DNA of 64,000 nt, taken from assembly GCA_049303575.1 (NCBI GenBank), contig JBAQNH010000002.1, positions 180,717 through 244,716 on the forward strand, in the 5' to 3' direction. The position numbers and the translations under genes are program-made. Position 1 is the stretch's first letter; each line of letters begins with the position of its first letter. Positions 2,805 through 42,495 of the stretch are shown one piece after another. This DNA is from Microgenomates group bacterium. GTDB lineage: Bacteria > Patescibacteriota > Microgenomatia > UBA1400 > MFAQ01. Below the pieces are notes generated by a model that made no database searches, had not been told where the DNA came from, and worked only from the letters and a program-made list of their open reading frames with translations.

Positions 2805-3836
2805 TTAAACCGTCGCCACACTTGGGTCTGGCCTTAAACTTACTGGTTTTACCTCGCGAGGAGCAATTATCGCGGCTACCCCCACCATTGCCGCGTTGTC
2901 TCCACAATATCTAAGTTCCGGACAAAAGAATTTAACCCCCTCAACTCCTTCAACTGCCATTTTTAAACCTTCTCTCAGCTGTTTATTTGCTGCTACTCCA
3001 CCAGCCATCAGTACACTTTTTGGTTTGTACTTCTCCACCGCCATCATTGTTTTTTTAACTAATATCTCAATTACAGCTTCCGAAAACTCCCACGCCAACA
3101 TATCACGTGTTTCTTCTTCAACAGTCCCCAAAGCCGTGATTGTTTTGGAAATTGCCGCTTTCAGACCAGAAAAACTCATATCTAAATTATTTTCATTAAG
3201 AAGTGGTCTGGGTAATTTAAATTTTGTTCCAAATTTTTCTTTCATTTGCACCGTCACTCTTTCTACTGCCTTGGAAATCTCTGGCCCACCAGGATAGGGA
3301 AGACCCAATAATCTCGCCGCTTTATCAAAAGCTTCTCCGACAGCATCATCACGAGTTCCCCCAATCCACTCCCAGTCTTTAGTATTTTTCATCAATATCA
3401 AGTCGGTGTGTCCACCACTCACCACTAACCCTACCGCGGGGAACATCGGTACTTCGGTCGTTTTATCTTCGACTATCCAGTTGGCAAAAACATGTGCCGC
3501 CATGTGATTCACCGAGTAAAGTGGCTTCTTCCACGCCCAAGACAAAGCCTTTGCCGACTCTACCCCCACCAACAGACTCCCCATTAATCCTGGACCAAAA
3601 CTAACCGCAATCCCTTGAATTGAGTCTTTATTTTCTCCGACGGACTCGGTAACTACTGGAATTATACTTTTGATCTGTTCGCGTGCCGCCACCTCCGGTA
3701 CAATACCACCATATTTTTGGTGCATCAATACCGAGCTTGCCACCACACTATTAAGTATTTTTACTCCTCCTCCACAGTTTTCCACGACCGCCGCCGCCGT
3801 TTCGTCACAAGTACTTTCGATAGCTAAAACTTTCAT
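2805..3836 (-). CDS. tsaD: tRNA N6-adenosine threonylcarbamoyltransferase TsaD (Kae1/YgjD family)
   Basis: MKVLAIESTCDETAAAV..., GGHTDL, SFSGLK and ...AGGVAAN motifs typical of TsaD. Confidence 0.9.
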   Translation of the reverse strand: MKVLAIESTCDETAAAVVENCGGGVKILNSVVASSVLMHQKYGGIVPEVAAREQIKSIIPVVTESVGENKDSIQGIAVSFGPGLMGSLLVGVESAKALSWAWKKPLYSVNHMAAHVFANWIVEDKTTEVPMFPAVGLVVSGGHTDLILMKNTKDWEWIGGTRDDAVGEAFDKAARLLGLPYPGGPEISKAVERVTVQMKEKFGTKFKLPRPLLNENNLDMSFSGLKAAISKTITALGTVEEETRDMLAWEFSEAVIEILVKKTMMAVEKYKPKSVLMAGGVAANKQLREGLKMAVEGVEGVKFFCPELRYCGDNAAMVGVAAIIAPREVKPVSLRPDPSVATV

Positions 3837-3887
3837 CCCCTTATTTTAACCCAGATTGAAGCAAATTAAATCAAAATTAATCAAACC

Positions 3888-5603
3888 TTAAATTCTTGTC
3901 CCCTTAAGATATATTGCCCGCCAAGGTTGATAGTTACTATAAAAAGTCTTTTCAAATAATGTTTCGTCTCCCTTAGTCACCTTGTAATTAAAAGACACTT
4001 TTGCTCCCCAAGCTGACCAGTCAATTTGTTTCATTTGTCCAAGGGGAAGAGTAGGGTCATCAACATACAGAGTTGCCGGTGGCGGAGTTTGTGAGGAAAT
4101 TTTTGGAACGGAAATACTCGCCACCCTACCATCTTTTGTTCCATAAATCTGCACACTCATATTCATATTTTTTGTGTCAACTTTGGTTTGTATTAGGATA
4201 TGATTTCCTGTATCATTCAAAAACTTTAAATCTGCGGTAGGGTTGTACACCGTTGCATCAATTCCCGGCTTACTATCTTGTTCATAATAACCTACTCGAT
4301 AAGCATGCGCCTTTCTCTCAGTGATTGTGAGCCCTGCATTAAGAGCTGCTCTAAACACCGTTGTCGATACTTGACACACCCCACCTCCATCACCTAACAC
4401 CGTTTTTCCTCCACTGATAATGTACGCTGACTGATATCCCGATGCCTTTGAAATATCCCCGACAGCACTATTAAACGAAAATTCTTCACCCGGAGCAACT
4501 ATCGTGCTATTTATTCTCGACGCTGCCAAATTAACATTAAATACTCTTCCTGGAATTGAATGAGAAAACAACGATTTACCCTCTCCAATTAACTCTTTAA
4601 TGCCTAGATTATTTATATCCCCGGCCTTAATTTTTGGGTAAGAAAGAATTACTGGAATTTCTAAAGTCTCACTACTAGCCGTCAGCAAAATCTCAGCCAG
4701 CTTCTCATTGAAAGCAGGAACATCAATTACTCTTCCCACGACTTCGGGTTTAAACTCTAGAACCTTTCCCTCTTCAAATCTAAAAACTGCGTCCTTGGAC
4801 TCTGTTTCCACCAACTGTTGTATTCTTGCTAATAAATTTCCAAACTGATCTTTATTCACAGTCTCTCTTGTCAGTCCATAAAGAGCCACCATCTCCTCTC
4901 GACTAAGACTTGTTTCAAAACTTTCCTGTTTCAGTATTAATTTCTTCTCCCCCCACTTGTTTATAGAATCAATTGCCTTGTCCACCAACTCTTTGTTTTC
5001 CTTTGCTGAAATGACCACTTTGGGTACATCAATAATCTGTTTATCCGGCAGCGACCAACCCTCAACGATCTTACCTATAAGCTGGAGTTTATCTATCTCC
5101 AAGCCATCTTTACCTGATACAGCAACTATTTTATCTTTTTCGACGACTAATTTTGGCCAAACAGGTTTCTGATTAAAGTCAGTTGCCAGTTGATCGACAT
5201 ATCCCTCCAAATCATCTTTTTCATAACTAATCGGCACCGAAATATTTCTTGGAGAATAAATTGTTTTTAACTGTTCGGATACCTGAGTTAATATATTTCC
5301 GTTTCTTCCCACCGAATATGCTTGTTCGACTGCCCAATTGAAGTCTCGTTCCACCTTGATCTCATCTAATTTATTAATCTCTTTTTCATTAACTCTTAAG
5401 ATCACACTATTGGGATTTGTTGAAAAATATTTACTAACAAGTTTTAGAGCCGTTATTTTATCCATTCCACCCACTCCGATACCGGCTACGGACACTTTGG
5501 GGAAAATTAAATTTCTGAAAGCCAGTCTATACCCCGTAAAAGCGGCACTAATTACTAAAATACATATCGCAAAAATCCAGATGATGTTTTTAAATTTATT
5601 CAT
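3888..5603 (-). CDS. VanW-family protein with N-terminal TM anchor
   Basis: N-terminal hydrophobic helix. C-terminal block GGGVCQVSTTVFRAALNAGLTITERKAHAYRVGYY is the VanW signature. Confidence 0.7.
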   Translation of the reverse strand: MNKFKNIIWIFAICILVISAAFTGYRLAFRNLIFPKVSVAGIGVGGMDKITALKLVSKYFSTNPNSVILRVNEKEINKLDEIKVERDFNWAVEQAYSVGRNGNILTQVSEQLKTIYSPRNISVPISYEKDDLEGYVDQLATDFNQKPVWPKLVVEKDKIVAVSGKDGLEIDKLQLIGKIVEGWSLPDKQIIDVPKVVISAKENKELVDKAIDSINKWGEKKLILKQESFETSLSREEMVALYGLTRETVNKDQFGNLLARIQQLVETESKDAVFRFEEGKVLEFKPEVVGRVIDVPAFNEKLAEILLTASSETLEIPVILSYPKIKAGDINNLGIKELIGEGKSLFSHSIPGRVFNVNLAASRINSTIVAPGEEFSFNSAVGDISKASGYQSAYIISGGKTVLGDGGGVCQVSTTVFRAALNAGLTITERKAHAYRVGYYEQDSKPGIDATVYNPTADLKFLNDTGNHILIQTKVDTKNMNMSVQIYGTKDGRVASISVPKISSQTPPPATLYVDDPTLPLGQMKQIDWSAWGAKVSFNYKVTKGDETLFEKTFYSNYQPWRAIYLKGTRI

Positions 5604-28152: not shown

Positions 28153-31100
28153 ATGCCGAAGACCACTCCTGAATTTGATCAAGCATACAAAAAATTAAAC
28201 GACGCCCAACGCCAAGCCGTCGATACTACCGAAGGCCCTGTTTTGGTTCTTGCTGGACCGGGTACAGGCAAAACTCAAGTTCTGGCGACAAGAATAGCCA
28301 ACATTCTTAAAGAAACCGATGCTGCTCCGGAGTCCATTCTTGCACTAACTTACACCGACGCTGCCACTCGTGAGATGAAAGAACGCCTTATAAAATTAAT
28401 CGGCAAAGATGGCTACTACGTCAAAGTCACCTCCTATCACTCCTTCTGTTCCGACATCATCTCCGAAAACCCAGAAAGATTTAGCCGACCCAAGGGTCTA
28501 AGTATTGCCACAGACCTTGAAAAAATTCAATTAATTAAAGATATTTTGGAAGGAGATACTTTTCCTCTTTTAAAACCGGCAGGTGACCCCACTTACTATC
28601 TCAAATATATTCTTGGTGCCATTGCCGATCTCAAGCGCGAAGGCTACCCCATCGATAAATACAAACAGATGGTTAATCTCCTAAAAGAAGAATTTGAAAT
28701 TGAAAAAGGGGATTTAAAAAAAGTTGCTCTCAAAGAAAAAGAAACTCTCGTCGGTAAAAATACCGACCTTCTCAAAATTTACGAAAAATATCAGGAAAAA
28801 TTGGTCGAACTTGGCCGCTACGATTTTGAAGACATGATTAACTGGGTGGTCGACGCCTTTGAAAAAGACTCCGATTTTCTCCTCACCTATCAAGAAAAAT
28901 TTCAGTACATTCTGGGAGACGAATATCAAGATACCAATAACTCCCAAAACCGCCTCATCTTTTCTCTCGCGAACTTCTGGGGTGAAGAAGCCAATGTTTT
29001 TGTTGTCGGCGACCCTAATCAAAGTATTTTTAGATTTCAGGGCGCCTCCAAAGAAAATGTACTAGAGTTCCAAAAAAGATTTCCTAATCTCAAGAAAATT
29101 GTCCTCGAACAAAACTATCGTTCCACCAAAAATCTTCTTACCGCCTCTGCTGGCTTAATCAGCGAAAGCCCTCTCCACCACACCGTCAAATTCCAAGATC
29201 TACCCATCAAGGTTGCCAAATTTAGCTCTCCTCTTTTTGAAGATGAGTTTATAACAGACACCATCAAAAGAAAAATAAGAGCAGGGGCTAAAGCCGCCGA
29301 CTTTGCCGTCATCACCAAAGACAACGCTGACATCGAAAATCTGGTGAACCTTTTCAAATCCAAAGGACTTCCATATCGCCTTGAAGGAGGTGTCGACATC
29401 CTCTCTACCCCGCTCATTTCTCAGCTCCTTAAGATTATTTCTCTCGTCACTACTTTCCAAAGCAAAACTGACGACCTCGATCTCTTTTTAGTTCTCAACT
29501 TTCCTTACTTTAAATTAAACCCGCTTTCTATTCTCAAAATTTCCCGTTACGCCCACGAAAAACACGAATCCCTTATGGACACCCTTTTCGATGCCCACCC
29601 CGAGATAAATCCAGCTGTCATTGATGTTTTCCATTTACTTCTCAGCTGGAATTCTAAAGCCTCCACTCACACTGTCCCTGAGATGTTTCAGATGATATTT
29701 CAAGAATCAGGACTCCTGGATTACATTCTTGCTCTACCCCAACCAATTCAACAGTTAAACCGTTTCGGTACTCTTTTTGAAGATGTCAAAAAACAGGCCG
29801 AAGCTTTTCCCGGTCTCGACCTATTCGGTTACGTCATTAATCTCAAAACTATGGCCGAGAATGGTTTGAAACTAGAGGAAATGGCTCTCATTGGCGACAA
29901 AAATGCCGTTACCCTCACCACCGTTTATAAAGCCAAAGGTTTGGAATGGAAAACAGTTTTCATTTATCGTTTTGCCGACACTCACTGGGGTAATCACACC
30001 AAAAGACAAATGATTAAGCTTCCTCCCGGAATTTTATCTCTCGAAGATGTAGACAAAGAAGACAAAAATGCTGAGGAACGTCGCGTCTTTTATGTCGCAC
30101 TTACCCGAGCCAAAAAAAATCTCTACCTCACCGGCTCCACCCAATATCCGTCTGCTCAAAAAATGGTTTTTCCTTCTATGTTTCTTGAGGAAATTCCCAA
30201 AAACACTCGCCAACTTATCAAAGTCAGTAAGTACCAAAAAAATGCTGAAAAAATTCTAGGCAAGCTCATGTCTGTCTCGACAACCCCGGTTCTCCATGAT
30301 GGCGAAAAAGAATACCTCAAGGAAATTATCAAAGACCTCAAACTTTCCCCAACCGCTTTAAATAAATACTTAGAATGTCACTACAAATTCAAGCTGGATA
30401 ATCTCTATCGCATTCCCCGAACTACCCCTCCATCTGCGAGTTTTGGTACCGCCGTTCACACCGCTCTTCAGTATCTCTATCTCAATTTGGAAAACACCAA
30501 AAAAGTCGAGCCGTTAAAAGTTTTTTTAAGCGACTTTGAAGTTGCCCTTCGCCGTGAAATTCTTTCAGACAGTGACTTTAAAAACTACTTGGAAAAAGGT
30601 AAAAAAGTTCTCTCCGCTTACTACGATTTTTATAAAGAAAGTTTTACTCCCGCTCTCTTCACCGAGAAAAAGTTTGGCTCCTCTCTCACTTCTCAAATTG
30701 TTCTCGATGACATTCCTCTCACCGGCAAGGCCGACAGAATTGATTTAGTGAGCAAAGCAGACAAACATGTCCGTTTCGTCGACTACAAAACCGGTCAACC
30801 AAAATCTAGAAACGACATTGAGGGTTTAAACAAAAACACGAACGGCGACTACAAACGCCAGCTGGTTTTTTACCAGCTCCTAGCCGACCTCGACAGATCC
30901 TTCTCCTACAAAGTAACCCAAAATGAACTTCAATTTATTGAAACCGACAAGGGCGGCAATTTTCACCAAGAGAGATTCAACATCACCAAAGAAGAAGTTA
31001 ATGATTTAAAGAAATTAATCAGGGAAACCATGGCCAGCATTCGTGCCCTCAACTTTGACCGCACTACAGAGTATCGTCACTGCGAACGCTGTGATTTCCG

Positions 31101-31158
31101 ATCTCACTGTTGGCCGGAAGGCTTACCGGTCACTACATCAGGATTCGAAGAGGAATAA
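28153..31158 (+). CDS. UvrD/PcrA-type SF1 helicase fused to a C-terminal Cas4/AddB-like PD-(D/E)XK Fe-S nuclease domain (AddA-like single-chain helicase-nuclease)
   Basis: Helicase motifs LNDAQRQAVD...LAGPGTGKTQVL, DEYQDTN. Nuclease motifs GKADRIDLV, VDYKTG, QLVFYQLL. Cys cluster C...C-x2-C-x5-C (HCERCDFRSHC). Confidence 0.8.
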   Translation: MPKTTPEFDQAYKKLNDAQRQAVDTTEGPVLVLAGPGTGKTQVLATRIANILKETDAAPESILALTYTDAATREMKERLIKLIGKDGYYVKVTSYHSFCSDIISENPERFSRPKGLSIATDLEKIQLIKDILEGDTFPLLKPAGDPTYYLKYILGAIADLKREGYPIDKYKQMVNLLKEEFEIEKGDLKKVALKEKETLVGKNTDLLKIYEKYQEKLVELGRYDFEDMINWVVDAFEKDSDFLLTYQEKFQYILGDEYQDTNNSQNRLIFSLANFWGEEANVFVVGDPNQSIFRFQGASKENVLEFQKRFPNLKKIVLEQNYRSTKNLLTASAGLISESPLHHTVKFQDLPIKVAKFSSPLFEDEFITDTIKRKIRAGAKAADFAVITKDNADIENLVNLFKSKGLPYRLEGGVDILSTPLISQLLKIISLVTTFQSKTDDLDLFLVLNFPYFKLNPLSILKISRYAHEKHESLMDTLFDAHPEINPAVIDVFHLLLSWNSKASTHTVPEMFQMIFQESGLLDYILALPQPIQQLNRFGTLFEDVKKQAEAFPGLDLFGYVINLKTMAENGLKLEEMALIGDKNAVTLTTVYKAKGLEWKTVFIYRFADTHWGNHTKRQMIKLPPGILSLEDVDKEDKNAEERRVFYVALTRAKKNLYLTGSTQYPSAQKMVFPSMFLEEIPKNTRQLIKVSKYQKNAEKILGKLMSVSTTPVLHDGEKEYLKEIIKDLKLSPTALNKYLECHYKFKLDNLYRIPRTTPPSASFGTAVHTALQYLYLNLENTKKVEPLKVFLSDFEVALRREILSDSDFKNYLEKGKKVLSAYYDFYKESFTPALFTEKKFGSSLTSQIVLDDIPLTGKADRIDLVSKADKHVRFVDYKTGQPKSRNDIEGLNKNTNGDYKRQLVFYQLLADLDRSFSYKVTQNELQFIETDKGGNFHQERFNITKEEVNDLKKLIRETMASIRALNFDRTTEYRHCERCDFRSHCWPEGLPVTTSGFEEE

Positions 31159-31853: not shown

Positions 31854-31917
31854 AAGCAAATCTTGATTTCGGGTAATATATGGTATTAAATGATATATAG
31901 ATAAACTTAATTCAACG

Positions 31918-32871
31918 ATGAATTCAATTCAGACTATTCAAGATACCTTCGATGTAAATGCAATTTATGCACATAAATTGCATAGTCTCACCAAAGGTGA
32001 TAATTATATTGAGGAAGTTAGAAGGACCATTAGCGAAAAACCAAAACCAATCGTCAAATGGGTCGGGGGAAAACGACAGTTATTGTCGCAATTTCGATTA
32101 TTAAACCTCTATCCCCCAAGTGGTTTCAACCCAAATAAATCTACATATTACGAACCGTTTGTTGGAGGCGCCGCCGTTTTTTTTGATCTTCTTCCAGAAA
32201 AAGCTTTCTTGTCAGATCTAAACAATGATCTAGTGATAACTTACAACGTAATAAAAAACGATGTTGATGAGCTGATCGATTCACTTAAAAAACACGTCTA
32301 TGAAAAAGAATATTTTCTTAGAGTTAGAAAACTCGACCCAAGGAAGCTATCGAAGATTGAAATTGCATCTCGTTTTATCTACTTAAATCGCACGTGTTTC
32401 AACGGTATGTATAGAGTAAACAAAAGTGGACAATTCAACGTTCCCTTCGGAAGATATTCAAACCCACAAATTTGTGATGAGCTCAATTTACGCAGGGCTT
32501 CAAAAGCTTTAAAAAACATTGAAATAAACTGTGAGGATTATAAAGAAGTATTAAATAAAGCCAAAAAAGGTGATTTTATTTATTTTGATCCACCATATTA
32601 CCCAATTAATTCCACGTCGTCATTTACTTCTTACACCCCTAACGCCTTTTTAGATAAAGAACAAATTGAGCTTCGGGAGACATTTGCACAGCTCAGCGAT
32701 AGAGGGTGTTACGTAATGCTTTCAAACTCAGACACTCCATTTATCAACAAAATATATTCTGAATTAAAAAATAAAGGAGTCAAAATAACAAAGATTCTAG
32801 CCGGAAGGGCAATCAACTCAAAGGCTTCGAGAAGAGGTAAAATTACCGAAGTGTTAATAACAAATTACTAA
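31918..32871 (+). CDS. Dam-family DNA N6-adenine methyltransferase (alpha class)
   Basis: KWVGGKRQLL (Dam motif I), PFVGGAAVFF, FIYFDPPYY (motif IV DPPY). It lies in an AT-rich block distinct from the flanks. Confidence 0.85.
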   Translation: MNSIQTIQDTFDVNAIYAHKLHSLTKGDNYIEEVRRTISEKPKPIVKWVGGKRQLLSQFRLLNLYPPSGFNPNKSTYYEPFVGGAAVFFDLLPEKAFLSDLNNDLVITYNVIKNDVDELIDSLKKHVYEKEYFLRVRKLDPRKLSKIEIASRFIYLNRTCFNGMYRVNKSGQFNVPFGRYSNPQICDELNLRRASKALKNIEINCEDYKEVLNKAKKGDFIYFDPPYYPINSTSSFTSYTPNAFLDKEQIELRETFAQLSDRGCYVMLSNSDTPFINKIYSELKNKGVKITKILAGRAINSKASRRGKITEVLITNY

Positions 32872-32884
32872 AAATACAAAATAA

Positions 32885-33406
32885 ATGATTACAAACGGAT
32901 TTGGAGGAGGAAATACAATTACCGGTTTAAACTTCGAAAAAGAAACAGACATACTTAGTTTGTTGAAAACTAAGAGAGACTACTCCGTTGCCGACAATAT
33001 TATTTATTTTAAAAAGAAAGAAGTAGCAAAAAGTTTCAAAAAGCATGCATTGTATCCTTTTTTAAAAACAAAAGGTGTCGATTATAAGAAAATAATTTCA
33101 AAAAAATTATTACCTGATGAAGCAATTTATGTAATTGTGAACAACACACTTTTTGTAATTGAAGTAAAGTTTCAAAAAGTCGCAGGGTCAGTCGATGAAA
33201 AATTACAAACATGTGACTTTAAAAGGAAGCAGTATGCAAAACTGATGGCACCATTAAATATTGAGGTTGAATATATCTATATTCTTAGCGATTGGTTTAG
33301 AAAATCAGAATACAAAGATGTGTTGGATTATATAATTTCAGTTGGCTGTCAGTATTATTTTCAATATCTACCATTACAAAAGTTGGGACTTCCTATCCCT
33401 GAATAA
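32885..33406 (+). CDS. Small PD-(D/E)XK nuclease-fold protein (candidate restriction endonuclease subunit)
   Basis: ...KGVDYKKIISKKLLPDEAIYVIVNNTLFVIEVKFQK...: a D...(D/E)-x-K arrangement like Hjc/REase catalytic cores. 173 aa. Confidence 0.45.
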   Translation: MITNGFGGGNTITGLNFEKETDILSLLKTKRDYSVADNIIYFKKKEVAKSFKKHALYPFLKTKGVDYKKIISKKLLPDEAIYVIVNNTLFVIEVKFQKVAGSVDEKLQTCDFKRKQYAKLMAPLNIEVEYIYILSDWFRKSEYKDVLDYIISVGCQYYFQYLPLQKLGLPIPE

Positions 33407-33431
33407 AGTCAGATTACTATTATTATCAGTA

Positions 33432-34190
33432 TTGATTAAAAAAGACATTGTACTTAATCCAGATGAGTTTGAATTGGAATGCACATCTGTGTGGGCATTC
33501 CCTCGAAGAGGAAATTGGGCAACACACACTTCTGACTGGCGAGGAAATTGGGCTCCAGAAGTAGCTAGAAATTTAATACTACGCTACACATCAGAAAATG
33601 ATTGGTTGCTTGATCCGATGGTGGGAGGTGGTACTTCCGCGATAGAAGCCAAGATTCTTAATAGACACATTATTTGCACGGATATTAACGAATTAGCTCT
33701 TATAAGAACAAAGAAATCGCTTGAATTTGATGCAAAAAACAATGCAGAGCAAAGGTTATATAAGTGTGATGCTCGAGACCTGAAAAAAATAAGTAACGGG
33801 AAAATTGACTTTGTATTAACCCATCCACCTTACGTTGATATCATCAAATACAGTGAAGGAAACATAGAAGAAGATCTTTCAAATATCCACGACTTAGATA
33901 TTTTCGCAAATGAAATGAAAAAAGTTGCAGATGAACTTTATAGGGTCCTTAAAAATGGAAAATACTGTGCAATTTTAATCGGTGATACTAGAAGAAATAA
34001 AATGTATCAACCCCTTGCCTTTAAGGTTATGGAAAGATTTATTAATGCCGGTTTTGTATTGAAAGAAGACATAATAAAAAGGCAGTTTAATTGCAAAGCA
34101 ACTGGGTTTTGGGTAAACAAATCAAAACTAAACAACTTCCTGTTAATTATGCACGAACATTTATTCGTATTTCAAAAACCTACTGTTTAG
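33432..34190 (+). CDS. SAM-dependent DNA methyltransferase (N6-adenine/N4-cytosine type; motif I before motif IV). Start uncertain: TTG 33432 or TTG 33342.
   Basis: Motif I LDPMVGGGTSAIEAKILNRHIICTDINE and motif IV FVLTHPPYVD. No in-frame ATG near the 5' end; the track ORF begins at TTG 33342 and would overlap the upstream gene by 64 nt. Confidence 0.6.
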   Translation: MIKKDIVLNPDEFELECTSVWAFPRRGNWATHTSDWRGNWAPEVARNLILRYTSENDWLLDPMVGGGTSAIEAKILNRHIICTDINELALIRTKKSLEFDAKNNAEQRLYKCDARDLKKISNGKIDFVLTHPPYVDIIKYSEGNIEEDLSNIHDLDIFANEMKKVADELYRVLKNGKYCAILIGDTRRNKMYQPLAFKVMERFINAGFVLKEDIIKRQFNCKATGFWVNKSKLNNFLLIMHEHLFVFQKPTV

Positions 34191-34194
34191 AAAA

Positions 34195-34647
34195 ATGAAT
34201 AAGCTGTTAACAGAAGATTTTGTCCAAAATAATATAATTAAATATCTTTCCAGAACTGGATGGAGTAAAAGCTTGAAATCGAAAACACTTAAGGAACACG
34301 GAGTTGATATTAAGGTCAGGAACAACAATTTTGCAAGATATTGGCTGATCGAAGTCAAGGGTGATGCAAGCGAAACAGCGAAATATCCTAGATCTCATAG
34401 AGAAGTAAACTTTAATCTCGCCTTGGGGCAAATTATCACCCGTATGCAATCGAACGGAACAAGGGGTTATAAATACAGGTATAAATATGGTGTGGGGTAC
34501 CCAACTTCATTTAAAAATCTAATTGTTCGAAGATTACCTTATGATGTGTGCGACAAACTAAATCTTTATATATTTTTAGTTGACGAAACTGGAGAAGTTG
34601 AGCTGCTCGATTGGAAAGGATTAAAGAAAATCCAATCTTCTCATTAG
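34195..34647 (+). CDS. Small Hjc-like PD-(D/E)XK nuclease-fold protein (candidate second restriction endonuclease subunit)
   Basis: ...LKEHGVDIKVRNNNFARYWLIEVKGD... closely resembles the Hjc/archaeal-resolvase and REase core (VDxx...IEVK). 150 aa. Confidence 0.45.
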   Translation: MNKLLTEDFVQNNIIKYLSRTGWSKSLKSKTLKEHGVDIKVRNNNFARYWLIEVKGDASETAKYPRSHREVNFNLALGQIITRMQSNGTRGYKYRYKYGVGYPTSFKNLIVRRLPYDVCDKLNLYIFLVDETGEVELLDWKGLKKIQSSH

Positions 34648-34661
34648 CAAAATCAATTTTA

Positions 34662-34689
34662 TTATTCCTTCACAACCTTTTTCTTAGCC
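34662..34689 (+). repeat. Imperfect direct repeat (28 nt) copying the 3' end of the zinc-ribbon gene; partner at 35147-35174
   Basis: TTATTCCTTCACAACCTTTTTCTTAGCC versus TTATTCTTTTACAACCTTCTTCTTAGCC (25/28 identical), with similarity extending about 15 nt further with an indel. Confidence 0.6.
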
Positions 34690-34904
34690 CCTTCTTTTTC
34701 TAAATTGTTCGCATACAACTTTTCCAAATGGTCACCGACAAACCTGGAAACAAATTTCTTGATACATAAATAAAATACTAATAATTTGCCCCTTTTTTCC
34801 GCAAAATTTGCTGGTTGTATTTTTGTTTTTAACAGCATAGGATTAAGGTGTAAAAAATAAAAAGGCCCCCTACAGGGAGCTCTTTAACAGAATAATGGTT
34901 TTGC

Positions 34905-34916
34905 TCTGAATAGCGC
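34905..34916 (+). repeat. 12-bp inverted repeat arm flanking the tRNA-like gene (partner 35015-35026)
   Basis: TCTGAATAGCGC ... GCGCTATTCAGA, perfect complement, 98 nt apart, enclosing the tRNA-like sequence. Confidence 0.7.
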
Positions 34917-34927
34917 ACCCGTCATTA

Positions 34928-35001
34928 CCGGGTGTAGCTCAATTGGTTAGAGCAGCTGCCTATTAAGCAGAGCGTTGGGAGATCATTCCTCCCCACCCGG
35001 A
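34928..35001 (+). tRNA. tRNA-like gene with noncanonical anticodon loop (CUAUUAA, formal anticodon AUU) and noncanonical T-loop; possible pseudo- or specialised tRNA
   Basis: Acceptor CCGGGTG/CACCCGG (7 bp), U8-A9, canonical D-arm GCTC-AATTGGTTA-GAGC, anticodon stem GCTGC/GCAGA (one G.A mismatch) with loop CTATTAA, T-stem GGGAG/CTCCC with loop ATCATTC (not TTCRANN), discriminator A. Confidence 0.45.
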
Positions 35002-35146
35002 CACCAATTAAGTCGCGCTATTCAGAACAAAGCCATCATTCAATGTACTAATTAACTATATTGACATGGTACACCCAATGTCAAGTCATAGTTCGACGAG
35101 ATTCTAGCATTTATATCAAAATGTTTCAATAAAGGATATTAATGCC

Positions 35147-35785
35147 TTATTCTTTTACAACCTTCTTCTTAGCCACTTTAGCCTTTTTAGGCTTAGCTAC
35201 TTCTTTTCCGGAAGTCATTTCAATAGTCTCAAGAATTTTTTCCGTCATATTCTTCGGTTCGGTAGGAGTCAAAAGCTTTATGATTTTGTCCAGTTTGGCG
35301 TTTAGTTCACTCAAATCCATATTTCCGGCTGCCGGTCTTTGGGAAGGAGCAAAAGATCTGGACTCACCTCTTCCACCGTCTTTTTTGGCAAAACAATCAC
35401 TACAAAGTACCGGTTTACCGTTTCTTGGTTCAAAAGGAACCTGACAATTGTCTCCACACTCATCACAAATAGCACTAAACATGGGTTTATCAAATCTGTT
35501 TCTGTCTCCAAACCCTCTGTCATTGCCTCTACTTTCGAATCTGTTTCCGCCTCTGGGTTCTTCGCCATTCATTTCACCAAAACACTTACTGCAGAAAACT
35601 TCTTTTCTACCATTAGGCTTGAAAGGAACCTGGCAACTGGAACCACATTTGGCGCACACGGCGTCAAACATTTCCTTTCGCTCGGAACCTCTGTCGTTTC
35701 CGCCTCTTGAGCCGAAACTACCCTCTCTTGGGCTGTAATACTGGCTTCTACTGTCTCCACTTCCACCTCGGTTAAAATATGTCAT
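35147..35785 (-). CDS. Protein with two CxxC-x17-CxxC zinc-ribbon repeats, an RGG/Gly-Arg-rich N-terminus and a Lys-rich C-terminus
   Basis: Repeat 1 CAKCGSSCQVPFKPNGRKEVFCSKCF and repeat 2 CDECGDNCQVPFEPRNGKPVLCSDCF. N-terminal ...NRGGSGDSRSQYYSPREGSFGSRGGNDRGSERK..., C-terminal ...KPKKAKVAKKKVVKE. Confidence 0.6.
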   Translation of the reverse strand: MTYFNRGGSGDSRSQYYSPREGSFGSRGGNDRGSERKEMFDAVCAKCGSSCQVPFKPNGRKEVFCSKCFGEMNGEEPRGGNRFESRGNDRGFGDRNRFDKPMFSAICDECGDNCQVPFEPRNGKPVLCSDCFAKKDGGRGESRSFAPSQRPAAGNMDLSELNAKLDKIIKLLTPTEPKNMTEKILETIEMTSGKEVAKPKKAKVAKKKVVKE

Positions 35786-40578: not shown

Positions 40579-42495
40579 TTACCAATTATCAATCTCGGCA
40601 AAATCGTCCTTTGTTGCTTCCGCAATCTCCCAGTCTTGGATAATAATTCTTTTCTTCTCTCCAAACTCATCCGTCTCCGCTAAAGGTTTAGTCATTTTTC
40701 GCTCGACTTCTCGTACCCCACCCACTCTTTTTAACAGCCTCTCCGGTATCTCGGACAAAAATCTTGATGGTATCGAAGAATGGCGTCCGCCAAAAACCAA
40801 TCTATTCCTTGCCCAAGACAAGGTCAATTTTCTTTTTGCTCGTGTCATGGCTACATAAATAAGGCGTCGTTCTTCTTCAATCTGTTCCTTCTCTCCGGAA
40901 AGCATTGATCGTGAATGGGGGAACAGTCCCTCTTCCAACCCCACCACAAACACGTTTTCAAACTCTAGTCCTTTGGCGGCATGCACTGTCATCAAAGTAA
41001 TTTTTGCATTTGATTTATGTTGTTTAATTTCCGATTCGGACAAAGCCGCACTCTCCAAAAATTTCTCCACATTTTTGTAATCAGAGGCCACAGCCAAAAG
41101 TTCGTTGATGTTTTCAATTCGTGCCACATCATCATCGTCCCGTTCATCAAATCTCTCCAAAAAACCAACGGCGTTAATAATCTCCTCCAAAAGTTTTCCC
41201 GGATTTTCCTGTTTTTCCTCGTCCGTTTTTTGCTCAAGCCACCTGTCAAAAACATCAGCCCTTCTTTTTCCTAGCTTTTCAATTCTTGTTCGGCTAATTT
41301 CCTCCTCCGGATTATTCAGTACCCGTAAATAGGCAATTAAATCTTTAATCTCGGCTCGGTTATAAAATCGTAAACCACCCACCAACTTGTAGGGAATATC
41401 TCGCCGCATTAGTTCGTCCTCAAAAGCACGTGACTGAGCGTTTGTCCTATAAAGTATGGCCACGGCACCATCTTCTTCTGCGGTTTTTCTCCCCTGCTCC
41501 ACCACATATTTTGCTTCATCTCGCTCATCACCCGCCTCAAAAAAATTCACCATTTCACCCGATCCTTCCACTGTTTCCAAATGTAAAGTTGGGTGTGTCG
41601 TGTTGTGGCTGATTACGCCATAGGCGGTATCCAGAATATTTTGAGTGCTTCGATAATTCATTGGCAAACTTACCATTGCTGCTTTAGGGTACTCTGTTTT
41701 AAACAAAACTAAGTTTCGGTAATCGGCTCCACGGAAAGAATAAATTGCCTGAGCCGCATCTCCCACGGCTGTAATATTTTGTTTTTCTCCTGCCAGCAGT
41801 CTGGTTATTTCAAACTGCGCTCTATTGGTATCTTGATACTCATCCACCAAAATCCATTCCAACTTTTTATTTACATCTTCTCTGATTCGGTTGTTTTTCA
41901 AAAGTTCTACCGCCTTAACTAATAGATCATCAAAATCTACCGCATTATTTTTCTTCAGTTTGTCTTGATAGGCTTTCCACACCTTCACCACCAATCGGCG
42001 AAAATAGTCACCAGCCTTAGTTTCTGCCTCGGTTACACTCACCAAATCGTTTTTCATTTTACTGATTATGGCCAAAAACATTGCCGGCTTAGACTCCTTT
42101 GGGTCCATGTCTAACTCTTTAAGAACCTTTTTCATTGTTGCTTCAGAGTCATCGCTATCAAATATGACATAATTTGGCATTACTGCCACATTTTGACCAT
42201 ACTCTCGCAACAGTTTGGCGCAAAAAGTGTGGAATGTTCCCGCAAAACCCAACGATCCAGCTTCTCCACCTAAATTCTTTACTCTTTGTCTCATCTCTTC
42301 AGCCGCCTTGTTTGTAAAAGTTAGTAAAGCAATTTTTTCTGCACCAATACCCATTTTCTGAATCAAATATGCCGCTCTATATGTTAGTACTCTCGTCTTT
42401 CCGGAACCAGCTCCAGCCAAAATTAGAAGAGGCCCCTTTCCATAAGTCACCGCCTCCTTTTGTTCTTTGTTTAGTCCTTTTAAAAAATCATCCAT
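40579..42495 (-). CDS. pcrA: ATP-dependent DNA helicase PcrA/UvrD
   Basis: LNKEQKEAV...LAGAGSGKTRVLT, DEYQDTN, ...VHAAKGLEF.... Start set at ATG 42495 (MDDFLKGLN...). Confidence 0.9.
   Translation of the reverse strand: MDDFLKGLNKEQKEAVTYGKGPLLILAGAGSGKTRVLTYRAAYLIQKMGIGAEKIALLTFTNKAAEEMRQRVKNLGGEAGSLGFAGTFHTFCAKLLREYGQNVAVMPNYVIFDSDDSEATMKKVLKELDMDPKESKPAMFLAIISKMKNDLVSVTEAETKAGDYFRRLVVKVWKAYQDKLKKNNAVDFDDLLVKAVELLKNNRIREDVNKKLEWILVDEYQDTNRAQFEITRLLAGEKQNITAVGDAAQAIYSFRGADYRNLVLFKTEYPKAAMVSLPMNYRSTQNILDTAYGVISHNTTHPTLHLETVEGSGEMVNFFEAGDERDEAKYVVEQGRKTAEEDGAVAILYRTNAQSRAFEDELMRRDIPYKLVGGLRFYNRAEIKDLIAYLRVLNNPEEEISRTRIEKLGKRRADVFDRWLEQKTDEEKQENPGKLLEEIINAVGFLERFDERDDDDVARIENINELLAVASDYKNVEKFLESAALSESEIKQHKSNAKITLMTVHAAKGLEFENVFVVGLEEGLFPHSRSMLSGEKEQIEEERRLIYVAMTRAKRKLTLSWARNRLVFGGRHSSIPSRFLSEIPERLLKRVGGVREVERKMTKPLAETDEFGEKKRIIIQDWEIAEATKDDFAEIDNW

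Follow-up and report, generated by a model that had tools for sequence, protein, structure and literature searches.

The subject of this report is a block of four genes, g1 to g4, in a 64,000-nucleotide (nt) stretch of DNA (the window) from a Microgenomates group bacterium (contig JBAQNH010000002.1, positions 180,717 to 244,716). We consider this block to be, probably, a composite defense islet of two independent pieces: a GATC-type restriction-modification cassette formed by g1, g2 and g3, and then a separate gene, g4. This reading draws on gene content, fold class, co-occurrence statistics, foreign base composition and GATC depletion, all of which were observed here.

In the proposed mechanism, the first piece (31858-34190) would be a three-gene type II restriction-modification system in which two methylases and one nuclease are laid out as in DpnII, MboI and LlaDCHI. 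The products of g1 and g3 would both methylate the adenine of GATC on host DNA, and g2 would cut unmethylated GATC on incoming DNA and be blocked by GATC methylation. The second piece (34195-34647) is g4, which would move as a bare open reading frame (ORF) and land just downstream of diverse defense genes, in this case behind g3. What we infer is that the system is specific for GATC and that g2 is sensitive to methylation, as well as any activity of g4.

An earlier, sequence-only reading of this DNA described a horizontally acquired restriction-modification island with two methylases, PD-(D/E)XK nuclease cores and a likeness to DpnII systems, and these elements are upheld. Its proposal that the four genes form a heterodimeric methylase-nuclease-methylase-nuclease (M-R-M-R) system, and its Hjc label for the nucleases, are not.

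Two methylases in one cassette

The four ORFs lie on the plus strand and contain the motifs originally quoted for them. The first, g1 (31918-32871; 317 amino acids [aa]), has the motifs KWVGGKRQLL and DPPY that led to its earlier assignment as a Dam-family enzyme. That assignment is confirmed by matches to TIGR00571 (4.7e-86; 288.8 bits, with a cut-off of 114.85) and PF02086 (4.1e-65). The closest solved relative of g1 is M1.DpnII (DpnM, 2dpm; 1e-67), E. coli Dam is matched at 1e-38, and g1 is 44% identical to M.LlaDCHIA from the Lactococcus plasmid pSRQ700. Judged by these similarities, g1 is a Dam-family, alpha-class, DpnM-like N6-adenine DNA methyltransferase, and its predicted target is GATC.

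The second methylase gene, g3 (33432-34190), has motif I (DPMVGGGTS) ahead of motif IV (HPPY). It matches PF01555 in two permuted pieces (1.8e-20; 74.3 bits, with a cut-off of 26.7) and, over its full length, the PADLOC model MTase_II (PDLC03376; 2.2e-87). With M.LlaDCHIB it aligns over 75 aa only (37% identity, 2e-9). By these matches g3 encodes another DNA methylase, an N6_N4-family enzyme whose motif order is permuted, and we predict that it is a second GATC methylase.

The longest ORF for g3 opens at a TTG codon at 33342 and overlaps g2. Because homologues are 245 to 253 aa long, and because the full-length PADLOC alignment of the longest ORF begins at residue 33, the true start is almost certainly the TTG at 33432, which gives a protein of 252 aa and a gap of 25 nt after g2. 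With this start, the intergenic gaps between g1 and g2, g2 and g3, and g3 and g4 are 13, 25 and 4 nt. The earlier description of gene 3, as a second methylase in which motif I comes ahead of motif IV and the start codon is TTG, is supported.

That g3 is an RNA or protein methyltransferase lying in the island by chance is highly improbable. Weak matches are found to RMKL-like UPF0020 (2e-7), Trm14 and HemK-type models, none of them close to its cut-off. Set against these are the full-length type II DNA methylase match and the PF01555 match already given, as well as a linkage of g3 to a Dam-type methylase and a nuclease that is conserved in the candidate phyla radiation (CPR), Planctomycetes and Fusobacterium. 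Among loci that have a Dam-type methylase and enough downstream sequence, a g3-type methylase lies 3' of g2 in 12 of 12.

The best match of g3 in an annotated collection (56% identity) is on a Fusobacterium vincentii chromosome, in a cassette with the order Dam-type methylase, 285-aa nuclease, Mrr-like gene and g3-type methylase. All relatives of the 285-aa nuclease carry PF04556, the DpnII family. By this gene order, the g3 type is assigned to the second-methylase slot of a genuine DpnII-type system in Fusobacterium.

The F. vincentii locus (L133; NZ_CP084075.1, 656146-664859) is a complete DpnII-type cassette, and the gene between its DpnII-family nuclease and its g3-type methylase encodes a 272-aa Mrr-like nuclease. 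DUF262/GmrSD-like genes lie between g2 and g3 in three other loci (L001, L005 and L012). Extra nuclease genes of a type IV-like kind seem to have landed repeatedly in GATC cassettes.

An unannotated nuclease family linked to GATC-type methylases

The gene between the two methylases, g2 (32885-33406), encodes a 173-aa PD-(D/E)XK nuclease of an unannotated family. It contains the catalytic motif PDEAIYVIVNNTLFVIEVK and has both features of the superfamily, namely the (P)D...(D/E)xK motif and the alpha-beta-beta-beta-alpha-beta core. Across 86 representatives (36-66% identity), the residues P77-D78...E93-x-K95-x-Q97, G101-S102 and D104-E105-K106 are at least 90% conserved. PD-(D/E)XK cores had been proposed for both g2 and g4, and in both families the catalytic D, E and K residues are invariant or more than 90% conserved.

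The g2 family comprises 6,992 clusters at 90% identity and 939 at 50%. Comparison of g2 with NCBIfam, PADLOC and PHROGs models gave no match, nor did sequence and profile searches of PDB chains. The sole reproducible family is PF20472 (PDDEXK_11), which is matched weakly, over the catalytic core, by 70 of the 86 family members. The best of these reaches an E value of 4e-7, and the copy in the window scores 20.2 bits, below the gathering score of 23.7. The literature searched on PDDEXK_11 and on GATC methylation in CPR bacteria yielded nothing useful.

No DpnII-family gene (R.DpnII, PF04556) was found in the 64-kb window, and g2 is therefore the only nuclease candidate beside the two methylases, g4 aside. 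The g2 protein has no match to PF04556 (one of its 86 relatives does, at 1e-3), and its BLASTP comparison with R.LlaDCHI is not significant. The possibility that g2 derives from a DpnII-family enzyme by shrinkage was considered. Its catalytic stretches can be aligned with those of that family (FD..IETNF..GSKL versus PD..IEVKF..GSVDEKL), at an hhalign E value of 0.03-0.04 and a probability of about 1% (0.042 and 1.2% for the g2-family alignment against a DpnII-family alignment). Homology is not claimed, and g2 is treated as a separate family because this profile comparison is not significant. A DpnI-like, methylation-dependent nuclease was also rejected, since g2 adjoins intact-length GATC-type methylase ORFs in most loci sampled. 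Instead, the g2 proteins are best read as an unannotated family of small restriction nucleases that would be sensitive to GATC methylation.

Linkage to methylases was assessed in 80 g2 loci from different species. A same-strand methylase accompanies g2 in all 80, counting two loci that are cut upstream of g2 and have the g3 type downstream. In 63 loci this partner is a beta-class methylase of about 273 aa that is 50% identical to the DpnA-type enzyme M.LlaDCHIB, and in 15 it is a Dam-type homologue of g1; mostly g2 is accompanied by one methylase only. The specificity that these two unrelated families, Dam-type and DpnA-type, have in common is GATC. In addition, one 489-aa protein from the representative search (P0295) has a Dam-family methylase at about residues 1-310 and a complete g2 domain at 321-485; it could be a natural fusion of methylase and nuclease, or the product of reading through from one gene into the next.

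Three loci have features of their own. At the NgoAXI locus of Neisseria gonorrhoeae (L126; NZ_CP119140.1, 6984-15467), a frameshifted DpnA-like methylase and then a frameshifted g2 homologue (two pieces, 47-67% identity) lie downstream of leuS and of drg, the DpnI-like "dam-replacing gene." This g2 homologue is unannotated in the PLSDB gene table for NZ_CP119140.1, which is itself incomplete, and the passages searched in the Neisseria literature do not refer to it. In L066, an ORF for a 208-aa coiled-coil protein (3453-4079) separates the Dam-type methylase from g2. In L046, the longest ORF (3939-5402; 487 aa) combines a LexA-like repressor/peptidase region with a DpnA-like methylase, which may start at an internal codon.

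GATC depletion in phages that carry g2 homologues

More distant g2 homologues were found in 47 loci by a profile scan of IMG/VR. In about 20 of these the homologue is solitary, amid phage replication and nucleotide-metabolism genes, and it keeps the catalytic motif. Dam-type or DpnA-type methylases were not detected in the flanks of about 4 kb around these solitary genes, and the 39 neighbors scanned include one N6_N4-family methylase, of another type.

The solitary phage loci are strongly depleted in GATC. Their pooled observed-to-expected ratio (O/E) is 0.28, several have no GATC site where 20 to 26 are expected, and in 16 of 19 loci GATC ranks first to third for depletion among the 4-mer palindromes. 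For 109 random viral loci with matching GC content the ratio is 0.69 (median 0.75). The difference has a Mann-Whitney p value of 1.4e-5, which is optimistic because the phage loci include some that are relatives of one another. These data suggest that the same nuclease is used in an arms race by genomes that have been purged of GATC. In total, the g2 family has three independent computational links to GATC.

The window itself contains 165 GATC sites (O/E 0.67), and GATC is its second most depleted 4-mer palindrome, but CPR contigs are generally depleted in GATC (O/E 0.5-0.7). The most depleted 4-mer palindrome in the 64 kb is GGCC (142 observed, 243 expected; O/E 0.59), a hint that the genome has been, or still is, exposed to a HaeIII-type system.

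Restriction nuclease or accessory nuclease

Besides the caveats attached to the depletion figures above, several observations weigh against the interpretation of g2 as the restriction nuclease of a GATC system. The beta-class partner methylase also resembles CcrM, an enzyme with GANTC specificity (NCBIfam 4e-73, below the cut-off), and its specificity is for this reason inferred, not read. One locus (L079) has the order Dam, R.DpnII family, g2 and g3 type, and in 11 of the 47 viral-contig loci g2 stands beside a full set of Dam, DpnA and R.DpnII genes in tandem, convergent or divergent orientation. The structure model of g2 is poor (predicted local distance difference test score, 52). Moreover, among the matches listed, all homologues of g2 are named "hypothetical protein," as are those of g4, apart from one "DUF3883 domain-containing protein."

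The co-occurrence with DpnII-family genes implies that g2 is not simply a replacement for the DpnII enzyme, and that it may be an accessory nuclease. In that event, g2 might for example nick hemimethylated GATC in the manner of MutH, or serve in repair or processing, and the CPR cassettes would be orphan methylases with an accessory gene. The lack of detectable homology between g2 and any known restriction enzyme family is also compatible with such a role. Nonetheless, we regard it as unlikely, though it deserves to be taken seriously. The 63 loci (of 80 sampled) with a DpnA-like methylase and g2 have no recurrent third gene; their downstream neighbors differ between loci, and no other nuclease recurs. 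The cassette is patchy in distribution, AT-rich and horizontally mobile, as restriction-modification systems are. Solitary copies in GATC-free phages fit a nuclease that attacks unmethylated GATC. Finally, two loci (L152 and L156) have R.DpnII, DpnA and Dam genes next to a divergent pair of g3-type and g2 genes, and are most naturally interpreted as a stack of two isospecific systems, as expected for a nuclease that persists only where GATC is methylated.

The g4 gene is an independent add-on

The fourth gene, g4 (34195-34647), encodes a 150-aa solitary protein with the PD-(D/E)XK nuclease fold. The motif GVDIKV...LIEVKG is present, the catalytic E-D-ExK set is intact (E7, D38, E53 and K55), and the protein agrees with the superfamily in both catalytic motif and fold. 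The copy in the window scores 21.0 bits against DUF3883/NOV_C (PF13020; cut-off 22.1), and 30 of 44 family members match this model at an E value of 0.01 or lower (best, 1e-5). No match was found among NCBIfam, PADLOC or PHROGs models, or among PDB chains by sequence and profile searches, and a viral fold library gave weak PD-(D/E)XK or MmcB-like matches. The g4 protein is borderline DUF3883 by sequence and XisH-like in its predicted fold.

In 26 g4 loci, the upstream gene is on the same strand at a gap of about -34 to +7 nt, and is of a different kind almost each time. These neighbors include type I HsdR, type III Res, a DUF6996/6997 type II enzyme, Shedu SduA, an OLD-like ATPase, Cap15 and Dsr1, and genes downstream of g4 are likewise defense-flavored. 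In 33 g4 loci, nucleotide conservation ends exactly at the ORF borders, and a search for conserved DNA outside the ORF, such as cassette or attC-like ends, found none. Thus, g4 is a separate mobile element outside the restriction-modification cassette.

This conclusion bears on two other ways of partitioning the block. The sequence-only reading favored a single M-R-M-R system of the BbvCI/Bpu10I type, in which the 173-aa and 150-aa proteins would form a heterodimeric or strand-specific nuclease with one methylase for each strand. That proposal has in its favor that the four genes are co-directional at gaps of 4 to 25 nt, that the two methylases differ and that both small proteins are of the PD-(D/E)XK type, and one other locus (L005) has the order Dam, g2, DUF262 gene, g3 and g4. 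However, the g2 and g4 profiles are unrelated (hhalign E value of 0.1 over 22 columns). When their co-occurrence was checked, g4 was present in one of 80 g2 loci, and g2 and g3 were present in none of 45 g4 loci. The related locus described in the next section has g1, g2 and g3 without g4, and g2 usually has a single methylase. Moreover, the likely target, GATC, is palindromic, so strand-specific subunits would be unneeded. We therefore reject the heterodimer, which we judge extremely improbable.

The alternating gene order and the intact catalytic residues of g4 could also be accommodated by two type II systems in tandem, a g1-g2 pair and a g3-g4 pair of different specificities. This arrangement is very improbable. 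The g3 gene travels with Dam and g2, as the 12 Dam-type loci show, and is absent from all 45 g4 loci. The 26 upstream neighbors of g4 that were scanned include no DNA-methyltransferase Pfam match at an E value of 1e-4 or lower, and R subunits of type I or III systems, SduA and similar proteins are common among them. A sequence-specific restriction enzyme without a cognate methylase is expected to be lethal to its host, which makes g4 an unlikely classical type II nuclease. Our best guess, made with low confidence, is that g4 is a solitary nuclease that needs no cognate methylase and is modification-dependent or structure-specific.

A foreign island at a variable locus

The block coincides with a compositional island (31858-34660) whose GC content is 33.4%, compared with 42.8% for the rest of the window, and whose GC skew is +0.071, compared with -0.171. 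Both values are extremes among 612 sliding 2.8-kb windows of the 64 kb, the GC content being the lowest and the skew the highest. The earlier claim of an AT-rich block therefore holds, and in a stronger form than was made. Outside the island, the plus-strand GC skew is strongly negative (about -0.2 to -0.35) nearly throughout the 64 kb.

A 282-kb contig from a close relative (L128) shares the neighborhood, with a UvrD-type helicase-nuclease, a membrane protein, a treble-clef zinc-finger protein and a uracil-DNA glycosylase (UDG). At the same locus it carries g1, g2 and g3 without g4, and has 2.6 kb of other genes ahead of g1. Nucleotide homology with this contig restarts at 31858, which defines the left border of the g1-g2-g3 cassette and a leader at 31858-31917 (plus strand); the border begins 4 nt past the stop codon of a gene for a 247-aa membrane protein. 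Positions 31858-34179 are 86.6% identical between the two contigs and the flanking core genes are 72-75% identical. It follows that the cassette is a discrete unit that was exchanged more recently than the genomes diverged. The insertion site behaves as a variable hot spot.

At the borders of the island (31858-34660), we looked for att-like direct repeats, inverted repeats and an integrase, and none bracket it. Scans for sigma-70 promoters and terminators gave signals no better than those in shuffled sequence, and hence we make no claims about operons.

Upstream of the island, at 28153-31158, lies a gene for a 1001-aa UvrD-type helicase with a C-terminal PD-(D/E)XK (PDDEXK_1) nuclease domain, AddB/AddA-like, a 26% identical paralogue of which is on the minus strand at 40741-42495. 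MerR-like, helix-hairpin-helix (HhH)-glycosylase-like and UDG genes lie downstream. With these genes on its two sides, the islet sits in a DNA-repair neighborhood.

A tRNA-like gene is located 280 nt past g4 on the plus strand (34928-35002, within 34885-35045). It scores 54.8 bits with the Rfam tRNA model, and ARAGORN classes it as tRNA-Asn; its anticodon, ATT, is unusual and its T-loop (ATCATTC) is non-canonical. The gene caps a long helix, about 28 bp, in which 27-nt inverted repeats (34890-34916 and 35015-35041) pair, and the whole folds at -63.6 kcal/mol (z = -7.6). No tRNA was found in the corresponding 12.5 kb of L128. A 32-nt direct repeat with 88% identity (34662-34693 and 35147-35178) duplicates the 3' end of a minus-strand zf_Tbcl_2 gene, whose product ends in ...KKKVVKE, and the repeat copy after g4 terminates a 58-aa minus-strand ORF (34662-34838). 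The 485 bp separating the two copies contain, besides the tRNA-like element, a hairpin on the minus strand that resembles a terminator (34880-34865). The direct repeat may be a scar of integration into the 3' end of the zf_Tbcl_2 gene.

Implications

If GATC cutting by g2 is confirmed, a name and an activity would be provided for about 7,000 clusters of "hypothetical" proteins, mostly from the CPR (Patescibacteria), with copies in Neisseria, Planctomycetes and phages. The g2 enzyme would be among the smallest that act on GATC, and a single nuclease family would be served interchangeably by three structurally different methylases. The g4 gene offers a clean example of a tiny nuclease gene spreading between defense islands, and is a candidate for stand-alone defense or for a selfish element. 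No current idea is overturned; rather, the known variety of type II systems is extended and the heterodimer reading is corrected.

A bolder reading is possible, and we put it forward tentatively. The g2 gene would found a minimal (about 170-aa) GATC-specific restriction family that pairs with three unrelated families of GATC methylases, stacks beside DpnII systems, and has been taken up by large GATC-free phages, presumably for use against the DNA of their hosts. As for g4, it would exemplify a new class of single-domain nuclease that spreads as a bare ORF among defense islands, downstream of defense genes.

Comparison with known systems

The resemblance of the block to type IIT systems such as BbvCI and Bpu10I is a surface likeness, consisting of two methylases that alternate with two small nuclease-like ORFs. 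Those enzymes have two homologous, co-inherited subunits, whereas g2 and g4 are neither related nor inherited together, and the site predicted here is palindromic.

The modification-dependent enzymes YenY4I and McaZI contain a DUF3883 nuclease domain, to which g4 would correspond as a bare 150-aa catalytic domain, without the PUA/DUF3427 sensor, ATPase or helicase. The likeness of g4 to the XisH fold (2okf) comes without an XisH sequence match, an XisI partner or a link to developmental excision. With Hjc resolvases g4 shares its small size and an E...D...ExK set with Hjc-like spacing, but neither sequence nor closest structure places the small nucleases in the Hjc family, and that earlier label is not supported. 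For g2, the nearest named family is the uncharacterized PF20472, to which its relatives match over the catalytic core and the window copy falls below the gathering score.

The DpnII, MboI and LlaDCHI systems, offered previously as a secondary analogue, provide the right frame, both in their two-methylase architecture and in the presence of the g3 type in a Fusobacterium DpnII cassette. They have the same layout, with two methylases and one nuclease on one strand. Their first methylase (M1) has a clear counterpart in g1, which is DpnM/LlaDCHIA-like. Their second (M2) is DpnA-type, as used by most g2 loci, whereas g3 in the window is instead of the circularly permuted N6/N4 type. Their nuclease is about 285-305 aa long and belongs to PF04556, and g2, at 173 aa, falls outside this family. 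The g1-g2-g3 cassette therefore shares the layout of the Fusobacterium DpnII cassette, with a different nuclease.

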